From the NCBI GenBank assembly GCA_002084505.1, contig NBLK01000002.1:1-52545 (forward strand): DNA of 52,545 bases, written 5' to 3'. Shown piece by piece: positions 4,407 through 52,158 of this stretch (position 1 is its first letter; every line of letters begins with the position of its first letter). The translations under genes were made by a program, and so were the position numbers. The notes under the pieces are model-generated. The model made no database searches, was not told where the DNA came from, and worked only from the letters and a program-made list of their open reading frames with translations. The DNA comes from Rickettsiaceae bacterium 4572_127 (GTDB lineage: Bacteria > Pseudomonadota > Alphaproteobacteria > Rs-D84 > NBLK01).

Positions 4407-4408
4407 AA

Positions 4409-5287: not shown

Positions 5288-5349
5288 ACTAAGATCTTTC
5301 TTATTAACGGTGAAATTCTCTTTTATTATTTCGCAACAATAACTCTAGA

Positions 5350-6165: not shown

Positions 6166-6187
6166 AACATATATTATAACACATATT

Positions 6188-9900: not shown

Positions 9901-9901
9901 G

Positions 9902-35718: not shown

Positions 35719-36380
35719 TCTTTGACACCGAAACAACTGGGCTATCACCAAAAACAGAAAGACTAGTTGAAATAGGTTGCGTTGAAGTAATAAACAACAA
35801 ACCAACAGGGCGGGAATTTCAAGCATATTGTCATCCTGAAACTACAATCGTAGGGGCGGAAGCTTACGATGTTCATAAAATTTCTATGGAGTTTCTAAAA
35901 GATAAGCCTTATTTTAGAGATATTGTTGGAGATTTTTTGGAGTTTGTTGGAGATGCTACCCTTGTGGCACATAATGCCCGCTTTGATATGGGGTTTGTGA
36001 ATATGGAGCTAAGACGACTAGGAAAAAAAGAAATCTCAAAAGAAAGAGTTAAGGATACTTTATGGTTAGCTCGAAAGAAATTTCCTGAGCTTGGAAGACA
36101 TAATTTAGATTTTTTATGCAATCACATGGGAATTGATAAAACAGAACGAGAAGAAAAAGGGCATGGAGCCTTATTGGATGCTCAAATTTTGACGGAAGTT
36201 TACTATAATTTAATCTTTGATAAAGAGCAGAAATTATTTGGAAAAACCGAAAAAAAAATAAAAACATCAAATACAGCCGAGAAAACTTTCCGAGAACCAA
36301 GATCTTTTCCTGTAAATGAAAATGATAATCAAAACCATAGAAGTTTTCTTGAGACAATTAAAAATGCATTGTGGGAATAA
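35694..36380 (+). CDS. dnaQ: DNA polymerase III subunit epsilon
   Basis: Exo I (IVFDTETTGL), Exo II (LVAHNARFDMGF) and Exo III (HGALLDAQILTEVY). Confidence 0.88.
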   Translation: MSNQIREIVFDTETTGLSPKTERLVEIGCVEVINNKPTGREFQAYCHPETTIVGAEAYDVHKISMEFLKDKPYFRDIVGDFLEFVGDATLVAHNARFDMGFVNMELRRLGKKEISKERVKDTLWLARKKFPELGRHNLDFLCNHMGIDKTEREEKGHGALLDAQILTEVYYNLIFDKEQKLFGKTEKKIKTSNTAEKTFREPRSFPVNENDNQNHRSFLETIKNALWE

Positions 36381-36443
36381 ACCACTTGCTTTTTTATTCT
36401 TTTCCCACTATACTAAGTGGGAAACAAACAGAAAGGATTAATC

Positions 36444-36719
36444 ATGTTAGAATTAGCAAATGTAAGACCTGATAACAAAGGCAGAGTTTTAATAAATAGA
36501 TTTATAAAAAAAGGCGTCTCTTCTTACGACATAGAAGCAAAAGAAGACGGCTCATTACTTTTTATACCGCAAGTTGAAGTTTCTTTTAGGGAAATGAATT
36601 TAATTAGAGACAAAAAATTTCATGCCGAGTTAAAAGAAAATTTAAAAAAAGCTATAAAAGAGGAAAAAGAAGGCAAACTTATTTCTCTAGGTTCTTTTCA
36701 AAAACACTTGGAGGGTTAA
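36444..36719 (+). CDS. putative type II antitoxin (SpoVT/AbrB-like guess)
   Basis: Start moved to ATG 36444 (AAAGGA SD). 91 aa. Ends 1 nt before a RelE/ParE-like toxin gene. N-terminal VRPDNKGRVLI resembles a swapped-hairpin DNA-binding motif. Confidence 0.5.
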   Translation: MLELANVRPDNKGRVLINRFIKKGVSSYDIEAKEDGSLLFIPQVEVSFREMNLIRDKKFHAELKENLKKAIKEEKEGKLISLGSFQKHLEG

Positions 36720-36720
36720 A

Positions 36721-37008
36721 ATGTTTCAAATAAGGTTTTTAGAAAAAGCAAATCACCAGTTGAAAAAGTTAGAAAAAAACAAAACATATAAAATTCAATT
36801 TAAGGCGGTTGTAAAAGCACTAGCTTATTTAGAGCAAAATCCAAAACATCCGAGCTTAAAAACTCATAGGTACTCTGGTTTCTCGTTTGTAAAAAAACAG
36901 GTTTTTGAGGCTTATGCACAAAATCATACATCAGGTGCATATAGAATTTTTTGGTATTACGGAGAAAACAATACAATCGTGATTATATCAATTACCGCTC
37001 ATCCGTAA
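36721..37008 (+). CDS. type II toxin, RelE/ParE superfamily
   Basis: 95 aa. The C-terminal pattern AYRIFWYYGENNTIVIISITAHP is typical of RelE/ParE-fold toxins. Paired with the upstream small ORF. Confidence 0.6.
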   Translation: MFQIRFLEKANHQLKKLEKNKTYKIQFKAVVKALAYLEQNPKHPSLKTHRYSGFSFVKKQVFEAYAQNHTSGAYRIFWYYGENNTIVIISITAHP

Positions 37009-37022
37009 AAAAAGGAATCAAA

Positions 37023-38681
37023 GTGAAAAAGAATTTAATTACCTCTGCTCTGTTATATATAAATGGGGAGCCACACATAGGGCATTTAGCAGGGTGTCTT
37101 TTGCCTGCGGATGCATTCGCGCGATTTAAGCGACTAAAAAATGAAGAAACTTTGTTTATTGGAGGAACAGACGAACATGGAACTGCGATTGAAATAGCTT
37201 CAAAAAAAGCAGGGAAACCATTTCAAGATTATTGCGACGAGCTTTTTGAGTTTCATAAAAAAACATATAAAGAATGGAATATATCATTTGATTTTTTAGG
37301 AAGAACATCAGATAAAAAAAATCACGAATTAGTTAAAAAGGTTTTCAAAGAGGTCGATTCAGCAGGATATATTTCTGAAAAAACAATTAAACAAATCTAC
37401 TCAATTGACGACAAAAGGTTTTTATCTGATCGCTACATCAAAGGAACCTGTCCCCACTGCAAAGCCGAAGGAGTGGACGGGGATCAATGCGAGGTCTGCA
37501 CAAAATTATTAGAGCCAACAGAATTAATAGAGCCTTACTCAACTATTTCAGGATCAAAAAATTTAGAGATACGAGAAACAAAACATCTATACTTAAAACT
37601 TTCATCAATACAGGGTGAGCTTGAAAAATGGATAGCAAAAAAAGATTGGAATAAAACAACTAAATCAATAGCACAAAAATGGCTTACAGAGGGATTGCAA
37701 GATCGTTGCATTACTCGTGATTTATCTTGGGGAATTTCCGTCCCAAAAACAGGCTATGAAAATAAAGTTTTTTATGTTTGGTTTGATGCCCCATTTGGAT
37801 ATGTTTCTATTACGCAACAATGGGCAGAGAAAAATAATACGAGCTGGGAAGATTGGTGGAAAAAAGATGATGTAAATTATACTCAATTTATGGCAAAGGA
37901 TAACATCCCGTTTCATACCGTTTTTTTTCCAGCGACAGAAATTGCCTCTGGTGAAAACTTTCACTTAGTAGACAATGTTAATGGATTGAATTATTTAAAT
38001 TTTGAAAATAAGAAAATATCAAAATCGAAAAAAATAGGAGTTTTTGCTTCTCAGGCTTCGGCTGAATTTCCTATTGATTATTGGAGATATTATTTACTTT
38101 CTCATATTCCTGAAAGCGGAGATTCTAATTTTTCTTTCTCTGAATTTATAACTTTAATAAATAAAGACTTGAACGATGTTTTAGGAAACTTTGTAATGCG
38201 AGTTATGAAATTCTATATAGCAAAATTCGGTAAGAAAATAGCGGAATCACCGTTTTTAGACGACGAATTGTTGGAAAAACTAACTCCGCTTGTGAATAGT
38301 TATGTGGATAATTTTGATAACTTAAAAATTAGAAAAACGATGGAAAATCTTCGAGAAATTTGGACTCTTGGAAATTCTTATATTGCAGAAAAAGAACCTT
38401 GGGCTGTCTATAAAACTAATCCAGAAGAGGCTAAAAAAATAGTGGAAACAGGACTGCATTTGATTGGTCTTTTTGCGGTCTTAGCTAAGCCAATAATCCC
38501 TGAGAGTGCAGAAAAAATATCTAAAATGATCACAGACGATTCGTTAAAATTACCAACTGGAAATCTAAAAACTTGGTTTCAATCTTGGAAAATTAAAAAA
38601 GAAATAGAAATCCCAACAGCGGTCTTTTCTAAAATAGATCCAAAAAAAGCAGACGAACTAAAATTAAAATACGGTGGATAA
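37023..38681 (+). CDS. metG: methionine--tRNA ligase
   Basis: GTG 37023 preceded by AAGGA. HIGH (GEPHIGHL), zinc knuckle (CPHC...CEVC) and KMSKS-like (KISKSK). The track ORF start at 36951 overlaps the toxin gene and is rejected. Confidence 0.88.
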   Translation: MKKNLITSALLYINGEPHIGHLAGCLLPADAFARFKRLKNEETLFIGGTDEHGTAIEIASKKAGKPFQDYCDELFEFHKKTYKEWNISFDFLGRTSDKKNHELVKKVFKEVDSAGYISEKTIKQIYSIDDKRFLSDRYIKGTCPHCKAEGVDGDQCEVCTKLLEPTELIEPYSTISGSKNLEIRETKHLYLKLSSIQGELEKWIAKKDWNKTTKSIAQKWLTEGLQDRCITRDLSWGISVPKTGYENKVFYVWFDAPFGYVSITQQWAEKNNTSWEDWWKKDDVNYTQFMAKDNIPFHTVFFPATEIASGENFHLVDNVNGLNYLNFENKKISKSKKIGVFASQASAEFPIDYWRYYLLSHIPESGDSNFSFSEFITLINKDLNDVLGNFVMRVMKFYIAKFGKKIAESPFLDDELLEKLTPLVNSYVDNFDNLKIRKTMENLREIWTLGNSYIAEKEPWAVYKTNPEEAKKIVETGLHLIGLFAVLAKPIIPESAEKISKMITDDSLKLPTGNLKTWFQSWKIKKEIEIPTAVFSKIDPKKADELKLKYGG

Positions 38682-39209
38682 ATGAAAAAATACAGAATAA
38701 TTTTAATTCCACAAATGGATGCATGGGAAGAGTTTTATAAAATAACAGAATCTTTATCAGAGATTTCAGATGGATATTTAATGTCTTCGAATAGCTCTGT
38801 TCCACACATAACGCTTAGTAAATTCGAAGCAGAAGACAAGGCTGTTGAAAAAATATGGAATAGTTGCAGAATGACTGTTGTCCCAAATGTAGAATTCTAC
38901 GGTCTAACTTTCGCAAAAAGAAAAGTTAATTGGGCGTTAGTTCTAACAAAAAGAACTGAAATTGTGCCTTTTCAAAAGAAAGTTTATGAAATTTTAAACA
39001 CACACAACTTAAAATTAGATGAAATAATAAGGGAGAGTTATATACCGCATCTTACTTTAATTAGAACACCATTAAGCGAATTAGAAATAATAAAAAAACT
39101 AGGAGATTTTTCATTCCTATTTGAAAAAAAATTAAAATGGAATTTAGTAATTGCAAGGTCTGGAAAATATGGAAAAATAAAAGAGAAAGATACTGTATAC
39201 TCCACATAA
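38682..39209 (+). CDS. 2H phosphoesterase (LigT / 2'-5' RNA ligase-like)
   Basis: Two HxTx motifs (VPHITLSKF and IPHLTLIRT) at the expected spacing. Its ATG directly abuts the metG stop. Confidence 0.65.
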   Translation: MKKYRIILIPQMDAWEEFYKITESLSEISDGYLMSSNSSVPHITLSKFEAEDKAVEKIWNSCRMTVVPNVEFYGLTFAKRKVNWALVLTKRTEIVPFQKKVYEILNTHNLKLDEIIRESYIPHLTLIRTPLSELEIIKKLGDFSFLFEKKLKWNLVIARSGKYGKIKEKDTVYST

Positions 39210-39252
39210 CATATAAGGGCAAGTAAAAACATTATGAGGAGTGGATAACAAA

Positions 39253-40257
39253 ATGAAATATAAAAATCAAACTTTTAATAAACAAGAAGTAGTTAGGACT
39301 ATTTTTGATTTGAAACAAAAAAAAGCTTTTATAGAAAAGTTTGGAGATTTTGATTCTAAGAAATTGATAATTTCAGGGCTTCAAAAAAATGTTTTTCTAA
39401 CAGAAAAAACAGCTATATTGTTGTATAAAAATAAAACTGCTTTTGGGTATTCAAAGAATGAAATAAAAGCCTATGAATGGTTTGGTGAAAATAAAGATTT
39501 AGATTTTTTACCTTACTTAATTGAAAAAATTGAAGACAAAAATATCTCGGATTTTCCGCTTCAGGTGGTTCATAAACTAGAAGGAGTTTCATTTTTTAGT
39601 CTTTGGCACGAGTTAAATAATGACGATAAAAACAGTGTTTTTGAGGATTTAGGGAAAAAATTAGCTAAAATTCACGAGCGATATATTACAAAACCATCAA
39701 CCTTAAAAGAAATCCCAATGGATGGAAAATTTGAATCAAGTGATTGGATTGATTATATTTGTGAGAAAGATTATTTTGAAAAAGCGATTGATTTTGCCTA
39801 TGATAAAATTCTTGAAAATTTTCCTAAAATGAAATTAGCAAAAAATATAAAGGAAGTTTGGAAGAAAAAACTTTTTAATTTTACGAAATTAGAATGCGTT
39901 TTAACCCATTGTGATATCCATGAGGAACAAATTTTAATAAAAAAAATAAATGGAAAATATAAAGTTTCTGGAATTCCAGATTGGGGATTTGCTCATATTA
40001 CATCTCCATTACAAGATTTTTATTTTAATGAAGAAAGACTTTTTCCATCAAAAGAAATTTTTCTTCCTGAGATAAAAAAACTCCGTAAAGTTATGTGGAA
40101 GTCATATTCTAAAAAAAGAAATTTAGATATTTCATGTGAAGACATGAAGTTGCTTTTTAATCTTTATTATTTAATTGTGTCTAAAAGTTTTTTAGAAAAT
40201 AACCACCCTACTTGGAATAATTTTATAAATAAAACCGTTCGTGAAATAACAAAATAA
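39253..40257 (+). CDS. aminoglycoside/choline kinase-like phosphotransferase (APH fold)
   Basis: Brenner-type motif LTHCDIHEEQILI and IPDWGFAH. Start moved to ATG 39253 (AGGAG 13 nt upstream). Confidence 0.6.
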   Translation: MKYKNQTFNKQEVVRTIFDLKQKKAFIEKFGDFDSKKLIISGLQKNVFLTEKTAILLYKNKTAFGYSKNEIKAYEWFGENKDLDFLPYLIEKIEDKNISDFPLQVVHKLEGVSFFSLWHELNNDDKNSVFEDLGKKLAKIHERYITKPSTLKEIPMDGKFESSDWIDYICEKDYFEKAIDFAYDKILENFPKMKLAKNIKEVWKKKLFNFTKLECVLTHCDIHEEQILIKKINGKYKVSGIPDWGFAHITSPLQDFYFNEERLFPSKEIFLPEIKKLRKVMWKSYSKKRNLDISCEDMKLLFNLYYLIVSKSFLENNHPTWNNFINKTVREITK

Positions 40258-40787
40258 TGAAAGCAATAAAAAATAGATTTAGTGTTTCCGAATTTACAGA
40301 TAAAAAGATTTCAAAAGAAGATTTGATTGAAATTCTAAATTGCGGGATTTTAGCCCCATCAGTAAAAAATACTCAGCCATGGTTTATGACTATTTTGAGA
40401 CAGGATTCAAAACAAAATTTCAGAGATTTTTTTATAAAAAATTTTAATAAATTAATCGTTCCTGCGGAGACAGAAAATTCACAAAATCGGACTTTTTCCG
40501 CCTTAAAAACGGCTGATACGGTTATTTTGGTTTGGAATACATCTAAAAATAAATGGGCTGGCTCAGAACATTCTTGCTGTGCTTTGATGCAAAACATTCT
40601 CACAAAGGCTACTGATTTGGACATAGGAAGCCTGTGGATTAGTGATATTCTTTTGGTAAAAAACGAAATTAAAAAGTATTTTAAAAAAGATTATTCACTC
40701 GTTGGAGCAATAGCATTAGGATATTCAAAACCACAACCAAAACACCGTGGACGAAAATCATTGGAAAAAGTCTGTGAATTTTTATAA
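40257..40787 (+). CDS. nitroreductase family protein
   Basis: RFSVSEFTDKKISKEDLIEILNCGILAPSVKNTQPW is the classic nitroreductase N-terminus. TAATG overlap with the kinase gene. Confidence 0.7.
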   Translation: MKAIKNRFSVSEFTDKKISKEDLIEILNCGILAPSVKNTQPWFMTILRQDSKQNFRDFFIKNFNKLIVPAETENSQNRTFSALKTADTVILVWNTSKNKWAGSEHSCCALMQNILTKATDLDIGSLWISDILLVKNEIKKYFKKDYSLVGAIALGYSKPQPKHRGRKSLEKVCEFL

Positions 40788-41306
40788 TTGAGCTAATATC
40801 TCATCAAGTTCCCTAAAGGAACTCACTTTTATAACATTGATATGAGAAAATTGCTCTATAATTTTCATTTGTGTTTTCCACCGTTTTGGCTGTTTAAATA
40901 GAATCCAAGGAATCATTCTAAAATTGAAACCTTTTGTTGCACCTAGCAATGCACCAGCATGATTTCCTTTAAGCCTACTTCTTTTGAAGAATCGAAATAA
41001 ACATTTGAAGCGATTGGTTTTTATTAAAACAATCGTATCAGCTCTTTTTAATCGCTGAGGCAGGAGTTTTTTATACTGACCATCGATAATCCATTTTTCT
41101 TTTTTGATAAAAGTATCGTGTTTTCTTTTAGTTTCTTCTCGGGAAGCAAGAACCCAATTCGTGTGAGGAATGTGTGCTATTTGGTCAAGATGCAGAACGG
41201 GGAAGTTTAATTTTCGTGCTAATTTTTCTGAAAAAGTTGATTTTCCAGAGTTAGACGGTCCTATAACACAAATCCGATTACCTAATATATATTCATTTCT
41301 TTGCAT
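40782..41306 (-). CDS. P-loop kinase (adenylate kinase / topology-modulation FlaR-like)
   Basis: Walker A (VIGPSNSGKST). 174 aa. Last gene of the minus-strand operon. Its 3' end overlaps the convergent nitroreductase gene by 6 nt. Confidence 0.6.
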   Translation of the reverse strand: MQRNEYILGNRICVIGPSNSGKSTFSEKLARKLNFPVLHLDQIAHIPHTNWVLASREETKRKHDTFIKKEKWIIDGQYKKLLPQRLKRADTIVLIKTNRFKCLFRFFKRSRLKGNHAGALLGATKGFNFRMIPWILFKQPKRWKTQMKIIEQFSHINVIKVSSFRELDEILAQL

Positions 41307-41309
41307 AAA

Positions 41310-42434
41310 CTATTTATCTTTTTTCAATTTTTCATCTAAATAAAGCCCGCTCAATCCCCAGAATTTTTTGAAATTTCCCAGCTCATTTTTATCACTTTTT
41401 TTGCCGCTAAAAACGGCTTTTACGAGTATATTCTTAGGTGTATGAGTGTGTGCTACAAACTCTATAATCTGTGTTTTATAACCAAAAGAATTTAAAGTCA
41501 TACAACGATAAGCATCCGTAACTAGACTCGCTACCCGCTCTTTAATCAACCCATAGGACAGCATCTCTTTTAATTTCTCCGACTTAATTTTAGTGAAAAA
41601 CTCATGCTGACAGCACGGGGCAGAAAGTAATAATTTAACATTCCCCTTGATGGCTTTTGCTATCGTATCGTCCGTAGCAGTATTGCAAGCATGAAGACTA
41701 ATCACAACATCTGGGTTTTTGAAATCATAGTCATCAATAGAACTTTCAATAAAATGCAATTTATCATAACCAAGTTTTTTTGCTATTTTTGAGCATTTTT
41801 CTATAAGCATTTTATTGCTATCAACTCCCGTTATATGCACGCTCCATTTTTTTATTTCCTTTAAGTAATGATATAAGGCGAAAGTTAAATAAGCCTTTCC
41901 GCATCCCATATCTACAATCTCCATTGGAGCGCATTTTGGGAAATCCGCTTGAAAAATCTCTATGAATTTATTTATTTGAATAAATTTGTCCGTTTTGCCT
42001 TTGTAAGGAATTCCTTGCTTGTTTGTAATTTCTAGCTCATGTAGAAACGGATAAAAAACTCCTCGTTGGAAAATATGATTTTTCTTAGAATTATGATCTG
42101 TCGAGACAACTTTTTTCGTAGCAGGCATTTCTTTGCGACGAATTTTTTTACCTACTTTGGAATAGTGAAAATCAGCAGACGGCGTAAACACCATTGCATT
42201 TGTGAATGATTTTTCAAATAAATTGCGGATTGTTTTTTCGGCTTCCTTCAAAGTGAGGTTTTTATGATATGCTTTTTTTTGATCATACGAAGTCATCTGA
42301 TATAGCACTTCATTTTTAGTTTCAAAAGGGCGAATTTCCACCCTGCGAAATTGCTCGCCTTTTATTGCTCCTGTGAGTTTGATAATGGCGAATAAGCCGT
42401 TTTTAGCGAAGAATTCTGCGAATGTTTTTTTCAT
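41310..42434 (-). CDS. class I SAM-dependent methyltransferase (Methyltransf_32 / METTL25-like)
   Basis: Motif I IVDMGCGKAYLTFAL. LHACNTATD and APCCQHEF are, as I recall, characteristic of that family. The N-terminal roughly 150 aa have unknown fold. Confidence 0.6.
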   Translation of the reverse strand: MKKTFAEFFAKNGLFAIIKLTGAIKGEQFRRVEIRPFETKNEVLYQMTSYDQKKAYHKNLTLKEAEKTIRNLFEKSFTNAMVFTPSADFHYSKVGKKIRRKEMPATKKVVSTDHNSKKNHIFQRGVFYPFLHELEITNKQGIPYKGKTDKFIQINKFIEIFQADFPKCAPMEIVDMGCGKAYLTFALYHYLKEIKKWSVHITGVDSNKMLIEKCSKIAKKLGYDKLHFIESSIDDYDFKNPDVVISLHACNTATDDTIAKAIKGNVKLLLSAPCCQHEFFTKIKSEKLKEMLSYGLIKERVASLVTDAYRCMTLNSFGYKTQIIEFVAHTHTPKNILVKAVFSGKKSDKNELGNFKKFWGLSGLYLDEKLKKDK

Positions 42435-42435
42435 T

Positions 42436-42921
42436 TTATTTAAACCTTTTTATCATTTGTAAATGCTCTTTAACATCATCTAGTCCAACCTGAATAGGAT
42501 TCGGATTAAAAACAAATCCACAGGATTTATGTAATTTTATAGATGCTGGATTGTCTTTTTCTACATTACTTAATATTGTAAATTTCTTTTTATTGGAGAC
42601 AAGTCTACAGACTTCATTTAAAAACAGTTTGCCAAAACCTTTTCCACGAAAAAAAGGAGAGACTAAAATAGGTTCAATTAAATATGTGTGTTCTAGGACA
42701 AGCGGTAGGCGAACATAACCAATTAGCTTTTTTTCAAGAAACATTCCGTGTAATAAAATATCTTTTTTTGAGATTGCTTCTTCTAAAAAATTATTTTGGA
42801 TTTTGAAGATTTTTTCAGTTCTTGCTTTTTCAGGTCTATCGCTCATAACGAGAGAGTTTAATTGATCTAAATTTTTTTTATTTTTTACGGATTTAAACGA
42901 GGGCAATAGCTTTTTTTTCAT
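42436..42921 (-). CDS. GNAT family N-acetyltransferase
   Basis: VSPFFRGKGFGKLFL (Q/RxxGxG/A) and SIKLHKSCGF. Confidence 0.7.
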   Translation of the reverse strand: MKKKLLPSFKSVKNKKNLDQLNSLVMSDRPEKARTEKIFKIQNNFLEEAISKKDILLHGMFLEKKLIGYVRLPLVLEHTYLIEPILVSPFFRGKGFGKLFLNEVCRLVSNKKKFTILSNVEKDNPASIKLHKSCGFVFNPNPIQVGLDDVKEHLQMIKRFK

Positions 42922-42924
42922 GTT

Positions 42925-44109
42925 TTATCTCTTTTTTAAGGTTGCTATTAAAACAATATACACACTTAAAATTACAAAAGCTAGAACAATAAATCCAGTT
43001 TGATAAGAAGTTTTGTGAATTAAAACCCCAATCCCACCAGCAAAAAAAGCTGAGACTATTTGCATCATTTGTCCCCTCACAGATAGAAGAGTTGCTTTGA
43101 ATCGGCTTTTACCTATCTTTTGAAGCAGAAGTGTATTTTCAATTTGTGAGACTCCCCATTCTAAAGAATTTAGCAAAATAAATATCGTTGCCACAAAATA
43201 CAGATTACTGAAAAACCCAAGGACACCGACTAGGATAATATAAGTGATAAACTTAAATGTTACGAGCGATTTTAGAGAGAAATATCTTTGAAATCGTCCG
43301 CTAAAAAATAACAATAAGGATGCGATTCCTCTTCCCACTCCTAATAAAATACCAAAATAGATAACAGGGATTTCGAGAAGTTCTTGGTAAGGTCCTCTAA
43401 AAGCACTTAATGCATATCCTACTCCGGAGATGAAAGCAAAGAAAATAGCCCATTTTAGAAATCCGCTTTCTTTACCTTTTTGTATAACTTGTTTGAAATT
43501 AGTCGCTGAAATTTCTTTGATTTTTTCTGCTTTTATTTTTGGAGAAACGAACGAAATGGCTGTTATTAAGCCTATAAAATCTATGAATAAAGCAATTAAA
43601 AAAGGCAGTCTATAACTTATATTTACCAAGAGTGGGACTAAAATTGTTAGAATTATTGGAACAGCAAAACCGATTGATTTAATCTTTCCCATCACTTTGC
43701 CGTAGTCATTTTCTCGTTTAAGTGTAATTAAAGTTTCGTGCATAAAGGCACTAGCGGTTCCACTCGTAAATGCAAAAGCAAGACTCAAAAGTATAGACCC
43801 AAAGGATAAGAAATAAAGATTGGTTCCCATTAAAAAACAAGATGTTGAAAGGATCATGAAAATCCTAGAAAGAACTAATGTTCTTTTATGACCTATTTTG
43901 TCCGAAAGATAACCGCTAGGAATTTCAAATAAAAAGCCTGCGAGATTCCCAAGTAATAAAATCACTCCAACATTTTGAATCGTAATATCTGGAATGGTCA
44001 TGTAATAGACACTCAAAATAGCAACGAAAATCCGCTTGTTAGTTATGTTAAAAATCGTAAATTTCCAAATGTTACTTTCTAGCATTTTTTCTCCAAAGTA
44101 ATTGAACAT
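42925..44109 (-). CDS. MFS transporter
   Basis: About 12 hydrophobic segments. MFS motif A-like GYLSDKIGHKRTL. The start could instead be ATG 44085. Confidence 0.7.
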   Translation of the reverse strand: MFNYFGEKMLESNIWKFTIFNITNKRIFVAILSVYYMTIPDITIQNVGVILLLGNLAGFLFEIPSGYLSDKIGHKRTLVLSRIFMILSTSCFLMGTNLYFLSFGSILLSLAFAFTSGTASAFMHETLITLKRENDYGKVMGKIKSIGFAVPIILTILVPLLVNISYRLPFLIALFIDFIGLITAISFVSPKIKAEKIKEISATNFKQVIQKGKESGFLKWAIFFAFISGVGYALSAFRGPYQELLEIPVIYFGILLGVGRGIASLLLFFSGRFQRYFSLKSLVTFKFITYIILVGVLGFFSNLYFVATIFILLNSLEWGVSQIENTLLLQKIGKSRFKATLLSVRGQMMQIVSAFFAGGIGVLIHKTSYQTGFIVLAFVILSVYIVLIATLKKR

Positions 44110-44644
44110 ATCCAGTTTTTACATGTTCAAAAACGGTGATTCCAGCGTTTTTCAAAAAATTATCAATTAAATCAAATGCCTCTCTTGGGCTTTTTGCTGA
44201 TGAGCTGTTGTATTCAATTTCTACAAAATCACCAAGTCCAACAACATTATCAAACTCGACTAAAAGTTCTCCACAAGAATAAGAGCGACGAGTTTTTTCT
44301 ACTTTTGCAGTTTCCTTAAATCCAAGAGTTCTAAAAATTTTCTCTGTTGATTTTCCATCAGATAAATTTGATTCGTATTCATCGGCGTATGCAGGCATTT
44401 CAGGTGTTTCTTTATGCCAGTTTTTATAGGTAATTGAATCTCCCTTTTCAGAAAAACGAACACGAATAAATTCCTTAGCATCCAAACCGTCTTTCGTGTC
44501 AAATAAAAATGTTTTATGGGGTGGATCAAAGTAAACATCAGTCTGTTTTTTTTCTCCAAGAAATTTCCCATTAGCAGATAAATAACTTAGTAGCAACTTT
44601 TTGTCTTTTAATTTGATAGTAATTTCAATTTCTAGGTCTTTCAT
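44072..44644 (-). CDS. CYTH / triphosphate tunnel metalloenzyme (class IV adenylyl cyclase CyaB-like)
   Basis: N-terminal ExExK signature (LEIEITIKL), later beta-strand acidic/basic pairs (FIRVRF, VEKTRRSY, GDFVEIEY). 190 aa. Confidence 0.65.
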   Translation of the reverse strand: MKDLEIEITIKLKDKKLLLSYLSANGKFLGEKKQTDVYFDPPHKTFLFDTKDGLDAKEFIRVRFSEKGDSITYKNWHKETPEMPAYADEYESNLSDGKSTEKIFRTLGFKETAKVEKTRRSYSCGELLVEFDNVVGLGDFVEIEYNSSSAKSPREAFDLIDNFLKNAGITVFEHVKTGYVQLLWRKNARK

Positions 44645-45054
44645 TATAATTCCTTTAATATATCTTCAGTTCTTTCTACTACATCGTCTTCATATTCTAA
44701 TTTTTCGAAAGAGAGTGGTTTTATTGATGCTAAATTTTTCTTTAATGAGAAAAATTTAACGGCTTTTTTAAGTTTTTTTGCTAGTTTTATTTCCTCAATA
44801 ACGCCATCTGAAATAATTCCAAAAACCCAAATTTCGTCAGAAACATGAACATAGGAATTATTGCCTTGCCGAATGGTGTCTCGATCAACAGAGTCTAATA
44901 AAAAATATTCAAACGACATAAACGGATTTATAGGAACATATTTTTCGAGTAATACGAACTTGCAAATAAACTGTCTCATAAAAAAGGTATCTTTTGAATG
45001 AGCTGTATAAACAACAGGAAGTCTTTTGTGTAATTTTGATGCCGGGTGATTCAT
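44644..45054 (-). CDS. hypothetical protein, possibly nucleoside 2-deoxyribosyltransferase-like Rossmann fold
   Basis: 136 aa. The pattern VVYTAHS...PINPF...DEIWVFGIISDGVIEEIKLAKKLKKAVKFF resembles the DUF4406/NDT-like layout as I remember it. Shares 1 nt with the CYTH start. Confidence 0.35.
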   Translation of the reverse strand: MNHPASKLHKRLPVVYTAHSKDTFFMRQFICKFVLLEKYVPINPFMSFEYFLLDSVDRDTIRQGNNSYVHVSDEIWVFGIISDGVIEEIKLAKKLKKAVKFFSLKKNLASIKPLSFEKLEYEDDVVERTEDILKEL

Positions 45055-45055
45055 T

Positions 45056-45613
45056 TTATTCCCTTTCTTTTAAAAAAAATTTTAGTTTTTTCATAAATCG
45101 TTCAAAATGTTCGTCAGTTTTCCCATAAGGAATTTTATCAAAATCAAACCACTTTATACTATGAAATTCTTCTTCGGCATATTTAAAATCCTGTTTGCAA
45201 TTTCCATTCATTAGATACCAAAGTGAAACATCAGTGTGGATATATTCAGGATTTCCGACAGTTTCAGTTACTGTTAAAAACAGCGGAATAGCCGTTATTA
45301 AGCTCGGTTTTACAGATAATTCTTCTTCTAATTCTCGCTCAGCAGTAATCTGCGGAAACTCATTTATCTCAACATGTCCGCCTGTCGGCAACCATAATCC
45401 AGATTTTTTATGCTCAGTTAAAAGAATCTTTTTATTTTTTATATCGATTACAACAGCATAAGAAACTAAATGCTTTGGAGGTGTTTTATGTTTTTTAATT
45501 CTAAAAATATCAGCCCCAGAATCAATCCAGTCTAATGCATTTTGAATATGATCGCTTTCTAAATTATCAATAGGTGAAATTTGTTTTATTAAATTGTAGA
45601 TTTGATTTCGCAT
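45056..45613 (-). CDS. NUDIX hydrolase
   Basis: Nudix box GGHVEINEFPQITAERELEEELSV. Start moved to ATG 45613 (AAGGAG 6 nt upstream). Confidence 0.75.
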   Translation of the reverse strand: MRNQIYNLIKQISPIDNLESDHIQNALDWIDSGADIFRIKKHKTPPKHLVSYAVVIDIKNKKILLTEHKKSGLWLPTGGHVEINEFPQITAERELEEELSVKPSLITAIPLFLTVTETVGNPEYIHTDVSLWYLMNGNCKQDFKYAEEEFHSIKWFDFDKIPYGKTDEHFERFMKKLKFFLKERE

Positions 45614-45743
45614 GAGAACTCCTTTTTTACGAACTAAAATCATAATAAAGCAGAGTCGAAATAAAGCAAGCTGTTTTTCACTGTTCCACATAATATATAA
45701 CAGAACATAAAATTATTATGGGGAATGATGTCTTTTTATTTTC

Positions 45744-45772
45744 TTGACTCAGGGATAGAAATGTTTTATAAT
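45744..45772 (+). promoter_or_regulatory. near-consensus sigma70 promoter of tRNA-His
   Basis: TTGACT (45744-45749), a 17-nt spacer, then TATAAT (45767-45772), 11 nt before the tRNA 5' end. Confidence 0.6.
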
Positions 45773-45783
45773 TTTGGACTATA

Positions 45784-45861
45784 TGGCGGGTGTAGCTCAG
45801 TTGGTTAGAGCGCTGGTTTGTGGTACCGGAGGCCGCGGATTCGAGTTCCGTCACTCGCCCC
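45784..45861 (+). tRNA. tRNA-His (anticodon GTG)
   Basis: Hand-folded cloverleaf. Acceptor GCGGGTG/CACTCGC, D arm GCTC/GAGC, anticodon stem CTGGT/ACCGG with loop TTGTGGT, T arm GCGGA-TTCGAGT-TCCGT. Encoded G-1 (45784) opposite C73, and an encoded CCA. Confidence 0.85.
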
Positions 45862-45875
45862 ATATTAAAAATATG

Positions 45876-46916
45876 TTAAAATTTATAATCCTTGGTTTCA
45901 AATAACTCTTCTGCTGTTGTAGCTATTTTAACTTTATCTTTTTCTAAAAGTGCTGGATATTCTAATTTTAGTTTTCCATAAAAGGCTTGTAAAAAAGGCT
46001 CAGACGGATCAGTAGGATCGCCCCATTTAGCCTCTTCTATTATATTAGGTCTTTTGTATTTTTTGATAATACCAACCCAAAATTTTTTCCTCTTTTCCAT
46101 TTGCTGATAAACATAAGTTGCCCCAATTCCTTCAATTTCATTAACATCATTTCGATAAATCACTTTATAGACCAGATGCTCCGTTAAGTTAGAAGTAAAC
46201 CAAATTTCAATCTCTTCCCCTGTCTTAAATCTAGCAAGTTTAATTTTTTCTACATATTCCATTTTGTTTTTCTGAGCCGTTCCTATTATACATCCCTCAA
46301 TCGCCTTAGGAGTTTTTGCTCCTTTTTGCCGGCAGGAATAATTATAATTGTGCTTATATAATACCGGAATTTTTGTTTTCATTTCAATAATACTATATCC
46401 CATTTTAGGAAAAATATATGATTTCAAATAAGGATAAGTCGCTTCAAGAGAAATTCCCGCAATATCAAAAGATTGAATAATAGGTAACTTGTCGGCTAGC
46501 AAACTGTCTTCAATTTGAGTTTTTTTATCATTAGAGTTGCCGATAAGATTGTCTAAAAATCCCTGCCCAAAAACAGAGGAGGAAATAAAAATAAAAACAC
46601 AAAGTAGTTTTTTTATTTTACCCCTCCCCAAAATAGCAGAGCTATTTTGACCCTCCCGCAAGGGGTGGGTGATATAGTCAAAACAATTAAGGTTGTCCGC
46701 AGAATTGCCAAAATTTTTCGAGGTATTTTCAATCGTTTTTTGAAAATTGTATATCATACATTTTTCGAAAAACTGTTGCAAAAGAACCGAAAAAGAAGGC
46801 GAGTATGCGTATAATTTTTTTAAAAAAACACTGCAAGAAAAAAAGAAAAAAAGAACAAGATTAATTGTTTTGACTATAAGTCGGAAAAGTGCGAATAAGC
46901 CGTTTTTAAGCATCAT
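45876..46916 (-). CDS. hypothetical secreted protein (start uncertain; a repeat module lies in-frame)
   Basis: The longest ORF is 346 aa, but codons about 81-100 are a reverse B repeat module (HPLREGQNSSAILGRG). The module is followed by a perfect signal-peptide-like KIKKLLCVFIFISSSVFG. An in-frame TTG at 46631 inside the repeat would give a 251-aa secreted protein. Confidence 0.55.
   Translation of the reverse strand: MMLKNGLFALFRLIVKTINLVLFFFFSCSVFLKKLYAYSPSFSVLLQQFFEKCMIYNFQKTIENTSKNFGNSADNLNCFDYITHPLREGQNSSAILGRGKIKKLLCVFIFISSSVFGQGFLDNLIGNSNDKKTQIEDSLLADKLPIIQSFDIAGISLEATYPYLKSYIFPKMGYSIIEMKTKIPVLYKHNYNYSCRQKGAKTPKAIEGCIIGTAQKNKMEYVEKIKLARFKTGEEIEIWFTSNLTEHLVYKVIYRNDVNEIEGIGATYVYQQMEKRKKFWVGIIKKYKRPNIIEEAKWGDPTDPSEPFLQAFYGKLKLEYPALLEKDKVKIATTAEELFETKDYKF
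46617..46675 (-). repeat. B repeat module (reverse orientation) inside the 45876-46916 ORF
   Basis: ttttacccctccccaaaatagcagagctattttgaccctcccgcaaggggtgggtgata. Confidence 0.85.
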
Positions 46917-49419
46917 TTTTCACCTCAAAATCAACACCCATTCCTTTGCCTTCTATGAAAAAAATTTGTTCTTTTTTTTGCACTCGCAATATTGAACACA
47001 AAGAAAGAATATGTCTTCTTAGTTCTATAATTGTATCGGTAGTTGTATGAATAGTAAGTGATTTTAATTTAGAGCTATTGGCAACTTTTTGATAAGTTCT
47101 TTTCTTTCTAACTAAATTTAGAACACCAAGAATACCAACTGTCTCATCCATTAGAAATGAGATGTCTGTGTCTCCATCTGAAAGTTTCAAGTCATTAAAA
47201 TAAGTTTCATCCTTTTTAGGAAAATCCGTAATATGAATCGACTCAGTTTTTTCAAAAGGTTTATAAATTTGTTGATAAAGCTCTTCTGTTACAAAAGGAA
47301 TAAAAGGAGCATATAGACCTAGAATTTTTCGCAAAACTTTCCAAAGTGTCCACTGGGCAGAATAACGATTCTTGTCATCAAACAATTCTTCATTCCAAAA
47401 CCGCTCTTTAATCATTTCTAAATACCTATCACAAAAATCATTCCAGAAAAAACTTTCAACAGATTCTTTCGCCATAGCAAAATCATGATTCCCAAAATGT
47501 TTTTCTATTTCTTCAATTGTTAAATAGAGTTTGTATAAAATCCACCTATCTTCAATAGGCATATTTGTAGGAGTTTTTTTTTCTTCAAAATCTCCTAAAT
47601 ATCCAATAGCAAATTTAGATGCATTCCACAGCTTCAAAACAGTCTTTTTTCCTTTTTTCATTTCTTTCTCACTGTATTTTTGATCTGTTCCAAGTCGTGC
47701 GGAATAAGCCCAAAGCCTAAAAGCATCAGCTCCAAATTTCCCCATAACTGGTATCGGCAAATAAGGATTGTAGCCGTCTTTATCTGTGTATTTTACCATA
47801 TGTCGTTTTGAGATTTTTTTACCTTGCTCGTTCTGCCCATGCCCTGAGATAACGATATCTTTCCAAGGAACAGAATTTGTGTGCAAGTGAGATTTTACAA
47901 TAGTATAAAAAGTCCAAGTTCTAATAATTTCGTGAGCCTGAACTCTTATAGACATGGGATAGATATTTTTACTTCCAAAGCTATTTGGGGCATCGCTCCA
48001 ATTAGAATTTATCAAAGGCGAAATCGACGAGGTCATCCAAGTATCCATAACATCTTGCTCGCCAGTAATTTTACTAGAACCACACTTAGGGCATTTATCA
48101 AGATGGCATTTATCTTTTCTAGGATCAACAGGCAGGTTTTCTTTTTTAGCTAAAATAACTTCACCACATTCACAAAACCACAGAGGAAAAGGAACTCCAT
48201 AAAATCGCTGACGAGAGATATTCCAATCGTATTTCAATCCATTTACCCAATCTTCATAACGAGATTTTAAGTGAGTCGGATGCCAATTTATTTCATTTCC
48301 TCGGTCTAATAGTTCATTTTTTATATCCATATATCTTATAAACCATTGCGGAGCAGGGAGGTATTCAACAGGAACTTCTGTTCGTTCTGAAATAGCAATA
48401 ACTTGATCTACTTTTTTTTCAGCACGAATAAAATCTAATTCTTTTAATTTTGCGACAACTTTCGATTTAGCCTCTTCAACTGCGATGCCTTCAAAATCAC
48501 CAGCAAGATCATTTAGCTTTCCATCTATCGTAATGCAAATTCGCAAAGGCAGAGAATCTTCTTTCCATTTCTTCACATCTTCCGCGTCTCCAAAAGTACA
48601 AACCATCATTAGCCCAGTTCCGAAATCTTTTTTAACTTCGTTTGAAGATTTAATTTCCACCGTATGATTAGACAGAGGAACAATTGCTTTTTTACCAATT
48701 AGTTTTTTGTATCTCTCGTCAGTTGGATTGCAGTAAAGAGCTACACATGCAAATAAAAACTGCGGACGAGTTGTAGAAATAATCAGCTCATTTCCATTTT
48801 CAGACTTAAAAGCAATGTCATATAATTTACCTTTACGAGTGATGGTCTCCACATCCGCCTGAGCCAAAGAAGAATGCAGTTTTGTGTCCCATTGAACAGG
48901 ATCATCGTTGCGATAAATCTTTCCCTTTTCATACAGGTCTATAAAAGACATTTGAGATGCATGTGAACTAGTATCATCAATAGTTGAGTATTGTAAATTC
49001 CAATCGATAGAAAGCCCCAGTGTTTGCCAAATTTTTTCATAATTTACACGACATCGAGAGGTTTCTTCAAGGCATAGCTCACGAAAGTCTTGCGGAGAAA
49101 TAGTTTTTTTGTTTACCTTATGAGTTTGCTCAACATATCGTTCAGTCGGCAATCCGTTGTCATCATATCCCATTGGATAAAAAACATTTTTCCCCTTCAT
49201 TCGTTGATAGCGAATAATTGCATCGGGATGTGAGTAGCTCATCATATGCCCAACATGTAAATGCAAAGCAGAAGTATATGGCGGAGGGGTATCCACAGAA
49301 AAGATTTCTTTATTTGAGTTTTTTTGAAAAGAGTAAAAATCATTTTCTTTCCAGAATCTCTTAATTTTCTTTTCAACTTCTATGTGATTAAAAATTTTAT
49401 CTAACTCAGGGAGTTTCAT
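46906..49419 (-). CDS. valS: valine--tRNA ligase (short form without C-terminal coiled coil)
   Basis: HIGH region PPPYTSALHLHVGH. Editing-domain motif TTRPQF..NPTDERYKKLIGKKAIVPL. GTGLMMVCTFGD. KMSKS-like KISKRH. 837 aa. Confidence 0.85.
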   Translation of the reverse strand: MKLPELDKIFNHIEVEKKIKRFWKENDFYSFQKNSNKEIFSVDTPPPYTSALHLHVGHMMSYSHPDAIIRYQRMKGKNVFYPMGYDDNGLPTERYVEQTHKVNKKTISPQDFRELCLEETSRCRVNYEKIWQTLGLSIDWNLQYSTIDDTSSHASQMSFIDLYEKGKIYRNDDPVQWDTKLHSSLAQADVETITRKGKLYDIAFKSENGNELIISTTRPQFLFACVALYCNPTDERYKKLIGKKAIVPLSNHTVEIKSSNEVKKDFGTGLMMVCTFGDAEDVKKWKEDSLPLRICITIDGKLNDLAGDFEGIAVEEAKSKVVAKLKELDFIRAEKKVDQVIAISERTEVPVEYLPAPQWFIRYMDIKNELLDRGNEINWHPTHLKSRYEDWVNGLKYDWNISRQRFYGVPFPLWFCECGEVILAKKENLPVDPRKDKCHLDKCPKCGSSKITGEQDVMDTWMTSSISPLINSNWSDAPNSFGSKNIYPMSIRVQAHEIIRTWTFYTIVKSHLHTNSVPWKDIVISGHGQNEQGKKISKRHMVKYTDKDGYNPYLPIPVMGKFGADAFRLWAYSARLGTDQKYSEKEMKKGKKTVLKLWNASKFAIGYLGDFEEKKTPTNMPIEDRWILYKLYLTIEEIEKHFGNHDFAMAKESVESFFWNDFCDRYLEMIKERFWNEELFDDKNRYSAQWTLWKVLRKILGLYAPFIPFVTEELYQQIYKPFEKTESIHITDFPKKDETYFNDLKLSDGDTDISFLMDETVGILGVLNLVRKKRTYQKVANSSKLKSLTIHTTTDTIIELRRHILSLCSILRVQKKEQIFFIEGKGMGVDFEVKNDA

Positions 49420-49797: not shown

Positions 49798-51468
49798 CTA
49801 TCCTCGTTCAAAGATTTTATCCAGAAGTTTGCGATCTAATTTCATAACAGTAGGGCGACCATGATTACACTGCATTGCTCTTGGAGTCTCTCCAATCTGC
49901 TTTAACAATTCATTCATTTCAGGAATAGAAAGCGACTGCCCTGCTCTAATTGATCCATGGCAAGCAATAGTCCCACGAATTTTATGAATGATTTTTTGAT
50001 GTTCTTTTGCAATATCATTGGTTTCTAATTCTGCGGAAATTTTTTGAAAAAGCTCAATCGGAGTTATGTATTTCAAAAAAGCAGGAATTTCTTTTATAGC
50101 AATTTTAGTCTCATCAATCTGCTCAATCACAAAGCCCGTTTCCGCAAAAGATTTTTTTTCTAGCAATAATTTTTCAATCGCCTCAGGGGTAGAAATAAAA
50201 ATCTCAGGCAGTAAAAGTTGCTGACGAATGATTTTGCGAGACTGAATTTTTTCTAAAACAATTCGCTCATGAGAAGCATGCTGATCTATAATAAACCATC
50301 CATCTTGGCTTTGAGAAATAATATAAGTGTTATGAAGCTGAAAACGAGCAATACCAAATTGAGACGAAATATCGCTCTCCAAAATTATATCTTCATCCGA
50401 AATCTTTCCGCCTGCAAAAGAAGCCTGAGGGTAAGAAAAAGGAGTTTCTTTTATTTCCGAAATACCCGCATCAGCCGTTTTTACAGTAGAAAAAACATGA
50501 TTTTCAAAAGTTGTTTTTCCTAATTCTCGTTTGATAGTGCCAATAATTAATTGCTTCAAAATAGCCTGATTTCTAAACTTCACTTCTGTCTTAGCAGGAT
50601 GCACATTTACATCTATCTCGCTCTCGGGAACTTTTAGATTCAAAACTAAAACTGGATAGCGATCATACGCCATCACATCGAAATAACATTGTCTAAGGAT
50701 AGCAAATAAAAATTTATCTTTTAGAAATCGCCCATTTACAAAAACAAAAAAACTTCTGGAATTGTGCTTATAATAAATCGGTTTTCCAATTAAACCTGAA
50801 ATGCTGTAATCCTCAATCGAGTTGCTTATGGAAAGTGAATTAGCGATAAAGTCTGCACCTAGTATTTTTTTAGCTCGATTCGTTAAGTCTGTTTTTTCAA
50901 ATAGTAAATTATTTAATTGAAGCTTTATAGTTGGATTTCCGATTGCGAATCTTTTTACAATTTCATTTATAGCACCTTGTTCTGCTCGTGTAGATCGCAA
51001 AAATTTCAAGCGAGCAGGGATTGCATAAAATAAATCTGTGATTTCAATTGTAGTTCCATGAGAGCGAGCCGATGGTTTTATGGATAAGATTTTTCCGCTG
51101 GCGACGATCATTTCCCAGCTGGATTCGTTATTTGAAGTTGTGATTTTCATGCGAGATGCGGATGCGATTGATGCTAGTGCTTCGCCACGAAATCCGAACG
51201 AGCAGATGTTGAATAAGTCTTCGTCAGGGATTTTAGAGGTTGCATGGCGGAGAATTGATTTTTCTAAATCTTCTCGTGGCATTCCTTTTCCGTTGTCGGC
51301 GATTGTTAGTTTGTTCTTTCCACCTTCTTCCGTGTTGATTTTGATTTCAGTAGCTTCAGCATCGAGAGAGTTTTCTATCAATTCTTTTAGAATCGTAGCA
51401 GGGCGGTCAGACACCTCCCCTGCACAAATCTGGTTAATTAAATGGTCTGGTAAAATCCTAATCATCAC
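49798..51468 (-). CDS. mutL: DNA mismatch repair endonuclease MutL
   Basis: N-terminal GHKL ATPase (LINQICAGEVSDRPATILKELIENSLDA, DNGKGM, GFRGEALASI). C-terminal dimerisation domain with QQLLLPE and ACHGSIRAG motifs. Confidence 0.9.
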   Translation of the reverse strand: MMIRILPDHLINQICAGEVSDRPATILKELIENSLDAEATEIKINTEEGGKNKLTIADNGKGMPREDLEKSILRHATSKIPDEDLFNICSFGFRGEALASIASASRMKITTSNNESSWEMIVASGKILSIKPSARSHGTTIEITDLFYAIPARLKFLRSTRAEQGAINEIVKRFAIGNPTIKLQLNNLLFEKTDLTNRAKKILGADFIANSLSISNSIEDYSISGLIGKPIYYKHNSRSFFVFVNGRFLKDKFLFAILRQCYFDVMAYDRYPVLVLNLKVPESEIDVNVHPAKTEVKFRNQAILKQLIIGTIKRELGKTTFENHVFSTVKTADAGISEIKETPFSYPQASFAGGKISDEDIILESDISSQFGIARFQLHNTYIISQSQDGWFIIDQHASHERIVLEKIQSRKIIRQQLLLPEIFISTPEAIEKLLLEKKSFAETGFVIEQIDETKIAIKEIPAFLKYITPIELFQKISAELETNDIAKEHQKIIHKIRGTIACHGSIRAGQSLSIPEMNELLKQIGETPRAMQCNHGRPTVMKLDRKLLDKIFERG

Positions 51469-52049: not shown

Positions 52050-52158
52050 AGCATTTCTCCTTTTTATTTTAATGTTAGATAAAAACAATGACAATTTCAA
52101 GGTGAAAAACTTTTTTCTTTATGTTTTTTAAAAACGGCTTTAACATATTTTTATTCTC

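Follow-up and report, generated by a model that had tools for sequence, protein, structure and literature searches.

The segment between metG and a tRNA-His gene of Rickettsiaceae bacterium 4572_127 raises the question of whether its ten tightly packed genes for small modifying enzymes form one molecular system or merely share a place in the genome. The segment lies at positions 38,682 to 45,861 of contig NBLK01000002.1 (GCA_002084505.1), of which positions 1 to 52,545 were analyzed (hereafter, the window). The source is a low-GC, compact, AT-rich alphaproteobacterial metagenome-assembled genome, and the GC content of the window is ~31%. An earlier note on this DNA had described the segment as an accessory island at a classical insertion site and had seen in it the logic of an RNA-repair or nucleotide-signal conflict system, with a detoxification cluster as the alternative. 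A comparison with five related loci points to another answer: the segment is probably a lineage-specific gene-flux hotspot, situated between metG on one side and tRNA-His, a hypothetical gene (hyp), and valS on the other as anchors, and its content a mosaic of independently acting small enzymes rather than one machine.

The metG–tRNA-His locus varies gene by gene among relatives

Five related loci were collected by homologue searches, and the window proteins were mapped onto them by tblastn. These loci lie mostly on short metagenomic contigs, and their protein identities to the window range from 60 to 92% (Table 1). A scan of genome contigs with MetG returned only two unrelated loci at ~30% identity, and the lineage seems to be absent among species representatives.

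Table 1. Gene order at the locus in the window and in five relatives. Arrowheads give the direction of each gene; MTase, methyltransferase; NTR, nitroreductase; kinase, P-loop kinase.
Locus	Source	Protein identity to window	Gene order
Window	NBLK01000002.1		metG> 2H> APH> NTR> <kinase <MTase <GNAT <MFS <CYTH <DUF7768 <NUDIX, tRNA-His>, <hyp <valS
Relative A	GCA_029940435.1	MetG 92%, kinase 87%, MTase 86%, CYTH 79%, APH 78%, NTR 72%, MFS 67%	metG> Idi> APH> NTR> <kinase <interrupted kinase paralogue <MTase <MFS <peptidase S51 <CYTH
Relative B	GCA_029935615.1	ValS 92.5%, MTase 84%	valS> hyp> <115-aa gene <FtsA/PilM-like gene, tRNA-His> MTase>
Relative C	GCA_016937865.1	MTase 65%	valS> hyp> tRNA-His> MTase> 68-aa gene> <mutL <PGI
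Relative D	two Logan contigs	CYTH 60%, MTase 65%	CYTH> overlapping MTase>
Relative E	ENA contig	CYTH 60%, NTR 58%	CYTH> MazG> 49-aa gene> <NTR <mutL <PGI valS>

The locus differs in every relative examined, which bears out the accessory character that the earlier note had assigned to the segment. The methyltransferase gene is kept in five of the six loci and the CYTH gene in four of six. The genes for NUDIX, DUF7768, GNAT, and the 2H-like protein were found in the window only and in none of the five relatives' loci; where they sit, the relatives have nothing or functionally unrelated genes (Idi, peptidase S51, MazG, an FtsA-like paralogue, a decaying kinase paralogue), and this at a core-protein identity of ~92%. 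CYTH, the nitroreductase, the APH-fold kinase, the P-loop kinase, and MFS are common to the window and some relatives. The combinations vary as well: the methyltransferase occurs without the kinase in relatives B, C, and D, being the only one of the ten genes beside tRNA-His in B and C, and CYTH is accompanied by the methyltransferase only in relative D and by MazG, with no methyltransferase, in relative E. The NUDIX-CYTH-methyltransferase-kinase block therefore does not travel together, and by this test, which the earlier note itself had proposed, the reading of the segment as a coherent system fails. By contrast with the window-only genes, the methyltransferase is a lineage-conserved, old resident of the locus, found at the syntenic position in relatives A to D.

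The orientation of the locus has also changed. The tRNA-His sequence is identical in the window and relatives B and C, and the promoter region upstream of it is similar to the one in relative B. In the window, the tRNA gene is inverted with respect to valS and the methyltransferase gene when compared with both relatives (window 45700–45900 against relative C 9740–10000 and relative B 5410–5700), which shows a local rearrangement.

Side by side with these comparisons, we considered the FtsA-like gene of relative B (contig 4248–5408) as a relocated copy of a window gene. The window carries an FtsA/PilM-like actin-fold gene that adjoins mreC. The two are 47% identical, against ~92% for core proteins; the candidate was thus rejected, and the gene of relative B is regarded as a paralogue.

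Packing and composition of the ten genes match the rest of the window

The open reading frame (ORF) listing, ARAGORN, and Rfam agreed with the layout previously described: ten consecutive ORFs at 38682–45613 in the order and on the strands given in Table 1, followed by tRNA-His. The ATG of the 2H-like gene directly abuts the stop of metG, whose ORF ends at 38681. The convergent nitroreductase and P-loop kinase genes have 6 nt in common (40782–40787); this convergent overlap is not unique, because a second convergent gene pair in the window overlaps by 18 nt (15812–15829). The same-strand gaps within the seven-gene minus-strand block are 3, 1, 3, −14, −1, and 1 nt. Elsewhere in the window the median same-strand gap is 1 nt, and 19 of the 37 such gaps do not exceed 3 nt; because these gaps are equally short the tight spacing is uninformative about the block.

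A foreign origin was likewise not reflected in composition, the check that the earlier note had proposed. The ten genes were indistinguishable from the 47 other window genes in GC content (p = 0.67), GC content at third codon positions (GC3; p = 0.83), and codon-usage log-likelihood (p = 0.96); their composition matches the rest of the window, i.e., it is native.

The family labels that had been given to the proteins were borne out. Nine exceed the Pfam gathering score (APH, Nitroreductase, AAA_18/AAA_33, Methyltransf_32, GNAT, MFS_1, CYTH, DUF7768, and NUDIX), and the tenth, the 2H label, is a putative assignment based on a match below that score together with sequence motifs (Table 2).

NUDIX, DUF7768, and CYTH as a candidate sanitation module

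The CYTH protein is assigned by sequence to the CYTH/triphosphate tunnel metalloenzyme (TTM) superfamily, with a predicted triphosphatase or cyclase activity. It matches TIGR00318, the model for CyaB-like (class IV adenylate cyclase) proteins, with 84.3 bits, above the cutoff of 57.95, and its nearest solved relative is the triphosphatase SaTTM (PDB 7ns8, 4e-13, against 5e-6 for YpAC-IV). SaTTM had itself been annotated as CyaB-like, yet is a triphosphatase that prefers tripolyphosphate (PPPi) ~19-fold over nucleoside triphosphates (NTPs) (PMC8233210). The window protein has a single domain, and the members of its clade are ~190 aa long. As in SaTTM and other CyaB-like proteins, the RxR, DxY, DEYE, KxR, and ExE residues are kept in the window protein, and the tunnel residues E5, E7, R61, R63, K74, D88, E89, E91, K117, R119, D132, E142, and E144 show no variation among 15 members of the clade. 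The difference lies in the hallmark ExExK motif (as defined in PMC8233210), which is replaced by E5-I-E7-I-T9-I-K11, so that the window protein reads ExExT with the lysine two residues later. Most clade members have ExExQ and then K or R two residues on, and only the protein of a distant locus, L019, has the canonical ExExK in the alignment. A scan of viral contigs with the CYTH alignment gave no match, and searches with CYTH gave no plasmid match and only two distant loci in metagenome contigs.

The NUDIX protein carries an extension of ~50 aa at its N terminus. Its NUDIX box in GHVEINEFPQITAERELEEELSV fits the pattern G-x5-E-x7-R-E-U-x-E-E-x-G-U except that the last G is S. The window protein belongs to a distinct family that comprises full-length proteins of ~185–200 aa in 70 clusters at E <= 1e-30. 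Homologues are fused elsewhere to GNAT (three times, in both orders), to a class I methyltransferase (twice), to MFS (once), to peptidase M3, and to DUF4269. We considered these fusions as a specific link to the GNAT, methyltransferase, and MFS proteins of the window and rejected that link, as the fused domains lack significant similarity to the window proteins; the fusions suggest instead a promiscuous association with small-molecule-modifying domains.

DUF7768 is predicted to have the Rossmannoid fold of nucleoside 2-deoxyribosyltransferase (NDT) and DNPH1. An AlphaFold model built from a 22-sequence alignment (predicted local distance difference test score [pLDDT] 92.6, predicted template modeling score 0.86) matched NDTs, DNPH1, and MilB best in Foldseek; the top matches in the PDB were 2a0k, 6evs, 8rh3, 6qai, DNPH1, and MilB, with a probability of 1.0 and template modeling (TM) scores of 0.5–0.56; it also resembles ThsB-type TIR domains (TM ~0.5). 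Together with a match to PHROG 355, “nucleoside 2-deoxyribosyltransferase” (6.4e-8), this model accords with the NDT-like label of the earlier note. A nearly invariant SDGxxxE motif stands at the start of the helix after the fourth strand. DUF7768 shares with the NDT/DNPH1/MilB superfamily the modeled fold and the PHROG match, but it is a separate Pfam family without a sequence match to any solved member (a PDB sequence search found nothing), and its catalytic residues are putative. A literature search returned no match for DUF7768. Homologues with 58–62% identity occur in three outside contexts, namely, next to an FAD-dependent oxidoreductase gene, inside a pyruvate:ferredoxin oxidoreductase cluster, and after an MFS gene, and DUF7768 is beside neither NUDIX nor CYTH in any of them. 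The contig with the FAD-dependent oxidoreductase gene also carries the conjugation genes TrwC/TraG farther off.

The order NUDIX then CYTH recurs outside the lineage. In contigs of Candidatus Berkelbacteria (Patescibacteria) the two genes lie on the same strand with a 3-nt gap, and at L019 a NUDIX gene, a 120-aa gene, and CYTH follow one another on the same strand. In relative E, MazG, another NTP pyrophosphohydrolase, comes directly after CYTH. A NUDIX gene thus lies upstream of CYTH in both of the two independent outside contexts, for which the rough chance is of the order of 1e-3 to 1e-4 if NUDIX genes make up ~0.5% of genes, a value that we assumed. This order is the sole cross-lineage regularity that we found, and it may point to a house-cleaning pair for nucleotides or polyphosphates. 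It is a modest lead and not a result, because the partner NUDIX proteins of Berkelbacteria and L019 share only the Nudix box with the window NUDIX and because relatives A and D have no NUDIX gene directly upstream of CYTH. A literature search found no specific report of a CYTH-NUDIX association.

A tentative extension of this lead is that NUDIX, DUF7768, and CYTH form a module that sanitizes nucleotides in three steps, within an array whose other genes are unrelated to it. NUDIX would turn a non-canonical NTP or a (di)nucleoside polyphosphate into a nucleoside monophosphate (NMP) and polyphosphate, the NDT/DNPH1-like enzyme would cut the glycosidic bond of the NMP, and the TTM protein would hydrolyze the released tri- or polyphosphate. 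DNPH1/MilB-type enzymes act on nucleoside monophosphates, which fits the structural match of DUF7768, and the three genes follow one another with a gap of 1 nt at one junction and an overlap of 1 nt at the other. The preference of SaTTM for PPPi fits the last step, and the NUDIX genes just upstream of the CYTH clade in two distant lineages and the MazG gene in relative E are in keeping with such a module. Against it stand the limited similarity of the partner NUDIX proteins, the separation of DUF7768 from NUDIX and CYTH in its three contexts, and the NUDIX-free arrangement in relatives A and D; the informative outside contexts number three. We regard this module as possible but somewhat unlikely. 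It is compatible with the hotspot explanation. A broader version appears doubtful to us: NUDIX and a CYTH protein of the ExEx[Q/T]xK type would be a conserved two-enzyme module in Alphaproteobacteria, Patescibacteria, and at least one further lineage, that of L019, expanded here by the NDT/DNPH1-like DUF7768. The module would remove a nucleoside polyphosphate or a non-canonical nucleotide by NUDIX cleavage, cleavage of the NMP glycosidic bond, and hydrolysis of the released tri- or polyphosphate.

Possible detoxification genes without a resistance-family match

Xenobiotic or antibiotic detoxification with efflux was the alternative offered by the earlier note. Here, one or more small toxic molecules would be modified by the APH-fold kinase, the nitroreductase, GNAT, and the methyltransferase and exported by MFS, and NUDIX and CYTH would be accessory. 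The family types fit this reading, and it suits the APH-fold kinase, nitroreductase, MFS, and GNAT better than RNA repair does. GNAT matches AAC(6'), Sat, and RimI models only far below threshold; its best NCBIfam matches, although weak, are to AAC(6') and streptothricin acetyltransferases, and those of MFS, likewise weak, are to multidrug and tetracycline efflux models. The fusions of NUDIX homologues to GNAT, methyltransferase, and MFS domains are also in line with it, as is the joint presence of the APH-fold kinase and the nitroreductase in relative A, where both orthologues hold the same positions as in the window. The nitroreductase of relative E also keeps the convergent position.

Every resistance-model score, however, was far under its cutoff: GNAT scored 30.7 bits with the AAC(6')-Ip model (cutoff 390) and 27.9 bits with Sat2 (cutoff 360), and MFS scored 20 bits with TetA(P) (cutoff 750). 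No resistance equivalog was reached in the NCBIfam scan of the segment proteins, and the APH-fold kinase had neither an NCBIfam match nor a PDB sequence relative. The domains fused to NUDIX are not specifically like those of the window. GNAT is missing from relative A, whose MFS and methyltransferase genes are directly adjacent, MFS and GNAT are both absent from relatives B to E, and the segment has no mobile-element context. Detoxification, as a loose theme of the APH-fold kinase, nitroreductase, MFS, and GNAT, is accordingly a possible but unlikely explanation.

Little in the segment resembles an RNA-end repair system

RNA ends or nucleotides are the substrates of some members in each of the superfamilies TTM, NUDIX, 2H, P-loop kinase, and methyltransferase. 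In an undescribed RNA-end repair or nucleotide-signal conflict system, these enzymes could act in sequence on RNA ends or on a signaling nucleotide, and the tight packing of the seven minus-strand genes would agree with this, as would the weak PADLOC matches of the methyltransferase and NUDIX given below. The block is intact in none of the five relatives, and the packing is genome-wide.

Features of the individual proteins bear on this reading as well. The 2H-like protein scored 24.1 bits against PF13563, below the gathering score of 27, and its match to TIGR02258 was weak; it has two H-x-T motifs, H42-I-T44 and H123-L-T125. A PDB sequence search gave trivial matches only, with no PDB relative, and the single-sequence AlphaFold model was unusable (pLDDT 37). 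In relative A, the position of this gene is taken by isopentenyl-diphosphate isomerase (Idi; NF002995, 170 bits against a cutoff of 127).

The P-loop kinase is FlaR/adenylate-kinase-like. Its match to the NCBIfam model PRK08118, “DNA topology modulation protein”, has an E value of 1.9e-31, but the 109 bits lie below the cutoff of 215. It has a single P-loop domain, and neither a Pnkp model nor a domain of the phosphatase or ligase type was detected in it by NCBIfam and Pfam at E <= 0.01. In relative A a second P-loop kinase paralogue (contig 1146–1751), 25% identical, lies between the methyltransferase and kinase genes; it is called as two ORFs of 63 and 120 aa but covered by one tblastn alignment, and is thus probably an interrupted gene in decay.

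The conserved domain of METTL25B is Methyltransf_32 (PMC8662637). The family of the window methyltransferase is very large, with 4697 full-length homologues of ~380 aa. A 45% identical alphaproteobacterial homologue is encoded by a solo gene, as are the homologues with unrelated neighbors in three annotated replicons from Ilyobacter, Stenotrophomonas, and Butyrivibrio. PDB sequence searches with the methyltransferase and the P-loop kinase gave only trivial matches.

PADLOC-DB v2 returned isolated weak matches only, of the methyltransferase to mad2 (2.1e-14), of NUDIX to PDC-S07 (2.9e-6), and of the kinase to Csx3 (1e-3), and no second component of any system. Membership in MADS, considered from the mad2 match, was rejected because no other component is present. 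Pnkp/Hen1 RNA repair shares with the segment broad classes only, a kinase and a methyltransferase in one operon; the window has neither the phosphatase and ligase domains of Pnkp nor a Hen1 domain, its kinase and methyltransferase belong to other families, and their pairing is not conserved. No Pnkp, Hen1, or defense model was reached in the scan of the segment proteins, and CYTH is closest to an inorganic triphosphatase. The RNA-repair or nucleotide-signal system suggested by the earlier note is thus highly improbable.

Surroundings of tRNA-His

A strong, near-consensus promoter-like site, TTGACT-17-TATAAT (11 of 12 matches), precedes tRNA-His, and the accessory genes lie on this 5' side. Integrases use the 3' side of tRNA genes. 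No direct repeat derived from tRNA-His was found within 36000–47500, and no recombinase among the ten genes or the flanking called genes, in agreement with the earlier observation that no integrase is present. The only tyrosine recombinase among the window ORFs scanned is a XerC/D-like protein ~33 kb away, and no segment protein had a phage structural match in PHROG. That the genes arrived as a classical island integrated at tRNA-His, whose recombinase was later lost, is very unlikely despite the adjacent tRNA gene and the variable content, given the 5' location, the lack of a tRNA 3'-end repeat and of a nearby integrase, the native GC, GC3, and codon usage, and a variation that is gene-by-gene and not all-or-none. 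Neither an att-like repeat nor a remnant of an integrase came to light, nor did a sister genome show an empty site sharply bounded at the tRNA 3' end.

Several further features were observed around the segment. The XerC/D-like gene adjoins a gene for a 367-aa protein with a phage-lysozyme domain. A GC-rich palindrome resembling CC[TCA]CCCCTTG[TC]GGGAGGG occurs in nine copies in the window, against 0 expected by chance; eight of the nine copies lie in long intergenic gaps, and none lies within 38682–45861. The ninth, at 46651, is in the non-homologous N-terminal part of the 293-aa hyp gene, next to the valS–hyp gap. Upstream of CYTH, relative A has ~380 nt of GC-rich palindromes (contig 1–388) with three related elements. 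The palindromes resemble REP/RPE-type mobile elements and may mark rearrangement points. The CYTH contig of relative A opens with “cgcccca”, the last 7 nt of tRNA-His, which is suggestive only.

The valS and hyp genes overlap in relatives B and C, unlike in the window, where ~290 nt (46616–46906) separate the valS stop from the homologous part of the hyp gene, from residue 48 onward. This extra DNA contains the palindromic element and a 24-nt inverted repeat, and the called N terminus of the 293-aa hypothetical protein may be spurious. Two gene pairs flank the region: one of 100 and 95 aa just upstream of metG, which is also in relative A and had no Pfam match at E <= 1e-5, and a ParE-toxin pair by mutL. 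Both look like toxin-antitoxin modules.

Table 2. Features of the window, with the evidence for each assignment. Bit scores are followed by the Pfam gathering score where given.
Feature	Position	Strand	Evidence
2H phosphoesterase-like gene, 175 aa	38682–39209	+	sub-threshold PF13563 match, H-x-T motifs
APH-fold (protein-kinase-like) small-molecule kinase	39241–40257 (gene call in source record starts at 39253)	+	PF01636, 30.6 bits vs 23.2
Nitroreductase-family flavoenzyme	40257–40787	+	PF00881, E = 3e-26
Small P-loop kinase, 174 aa, adenylate kinase/FlaR-related	40782–41306	-	AAA_18/AAA_33
Methyltransf_32 (METTL25B-type) S-adenosylmethionine-dependent methyltransferase, 374 aa	41310–42434	-	PF13679, E = 5.7e-37, 127 bits
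GNAT acetyltransferase	42436–42921	-	PF00583, E = 1.3e-12
MFS_1 transporter, 386 aa (gene call in source record)	42925–44085; longest ORF to 44109	-	PF07690, E = 7.5e-21
CYTH/TTM protein	44072–44644	-	PF01928, 90.9 bits vs 23.2, E = 1.2e-25
DUF7768, NDT-like Rossmannoid protein	44644–45054	-	PF24963, 35 bits vs 26
NUDIX hydrolase, 185 aa (gene call in source record)	45056–45613; longest ORF to 45691	-	PF00293, 53.4 bits vs 21.1, E = 3.4e-14
Promoter-like site	45744–45772		
tRNA-His(GTG)	45786–45862	+	ARAGORN, Rfam
XerC/D-like recombinase	4409–5287		
Phage-lysozyme-domain protein	5350–6453		
FtsA/PilM-like actin-fold gene	28674–29870		
100-aa and 95-aa gene pair	36417–37008		
ParE-toxin pair	51458–52100		
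24-nt inverted repeat	46673–46696 / 46855–46878		
GC-rich palindrome copies	4353, 21763, 21871, 24254, 26130, 26315, 26611, 46651, 49448	- for 26611 and 46651	

A probable gene-flux hotspot in a compact genome

In the gene-flux hotspot that we consider probable, the genes would be co-transcribed only because the genome packs nearly all same-strand genes 0–3 nt apart, and each product would act on its own substrate. CYTH would be a tri- or polyphosphate or NTP triphosphatase, NUDIX a nucleoside-diphosphate-X pyrophosphatase, and DUF7768 an N-glycosidase or transferase acting on nucleosides or nucleotides. Small molecules or macromolecules would be modified by the methyltransferase, GNAT, the nitroreductase, and the APH-fold kinase, and MFS would be a transporter. 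Gene turnover would probably proceed via local recombination and inversion around the tRNA gene, to which the GC-rich palindromic repeats of the intergenic regions may contribute. NUDIX followed by CYTH is the only sub-module with outside support; the two enzymes may clear nucleotide or polyphosphate compounds in two steps, as a house-cleaning pair.

The segment resembles known gene-flux hotspots, or flexible genomic islets, in its conserved anchors, its gene-by-gene variation at ~92% core identity, its native composition, and its lack of an integrase, as well as in the repeats and toxin-antitoxin-like pairs nearby. It differs from them in that its turnover includes the inversion of a tRNA gene with its promoter and in that its cargo consists mainly of small hydrolases and transferases and not of defense or surface genes.

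Several observations weigh against the hotspot explanation. CYTH and the methyltransferase occur together in three of the six lineage genomes, for which shared ancestry may not be the whole reason. The neighbor of CYTH is repeatedly a nucleotide pyrophosphohydrolase, namely NUDIX in three lineages and, in a fourth, MazG, which hints at a functional theme. The fusions of NUDIX homologues involve superfamilies that are also in the segment, and the genes may thus belong to a loose functional guild. Finally, the comparison covers five loci on mostly short contigs, and genes absent from these loci may be present elsewhere in those genomes.

Two small leads emerge from this locus, the recurrent position of NUDIX ahead of CYTH in a clade whose ExExK lysine is shifted and the NDT-like DUF7768 family, and neither settles a long-standing question. 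The result is mainly a negative one: enzyme families of the “nucleotide-end” type in a tight operon look like a system, and such an arrangement can arise by gene flux in a compact genome.

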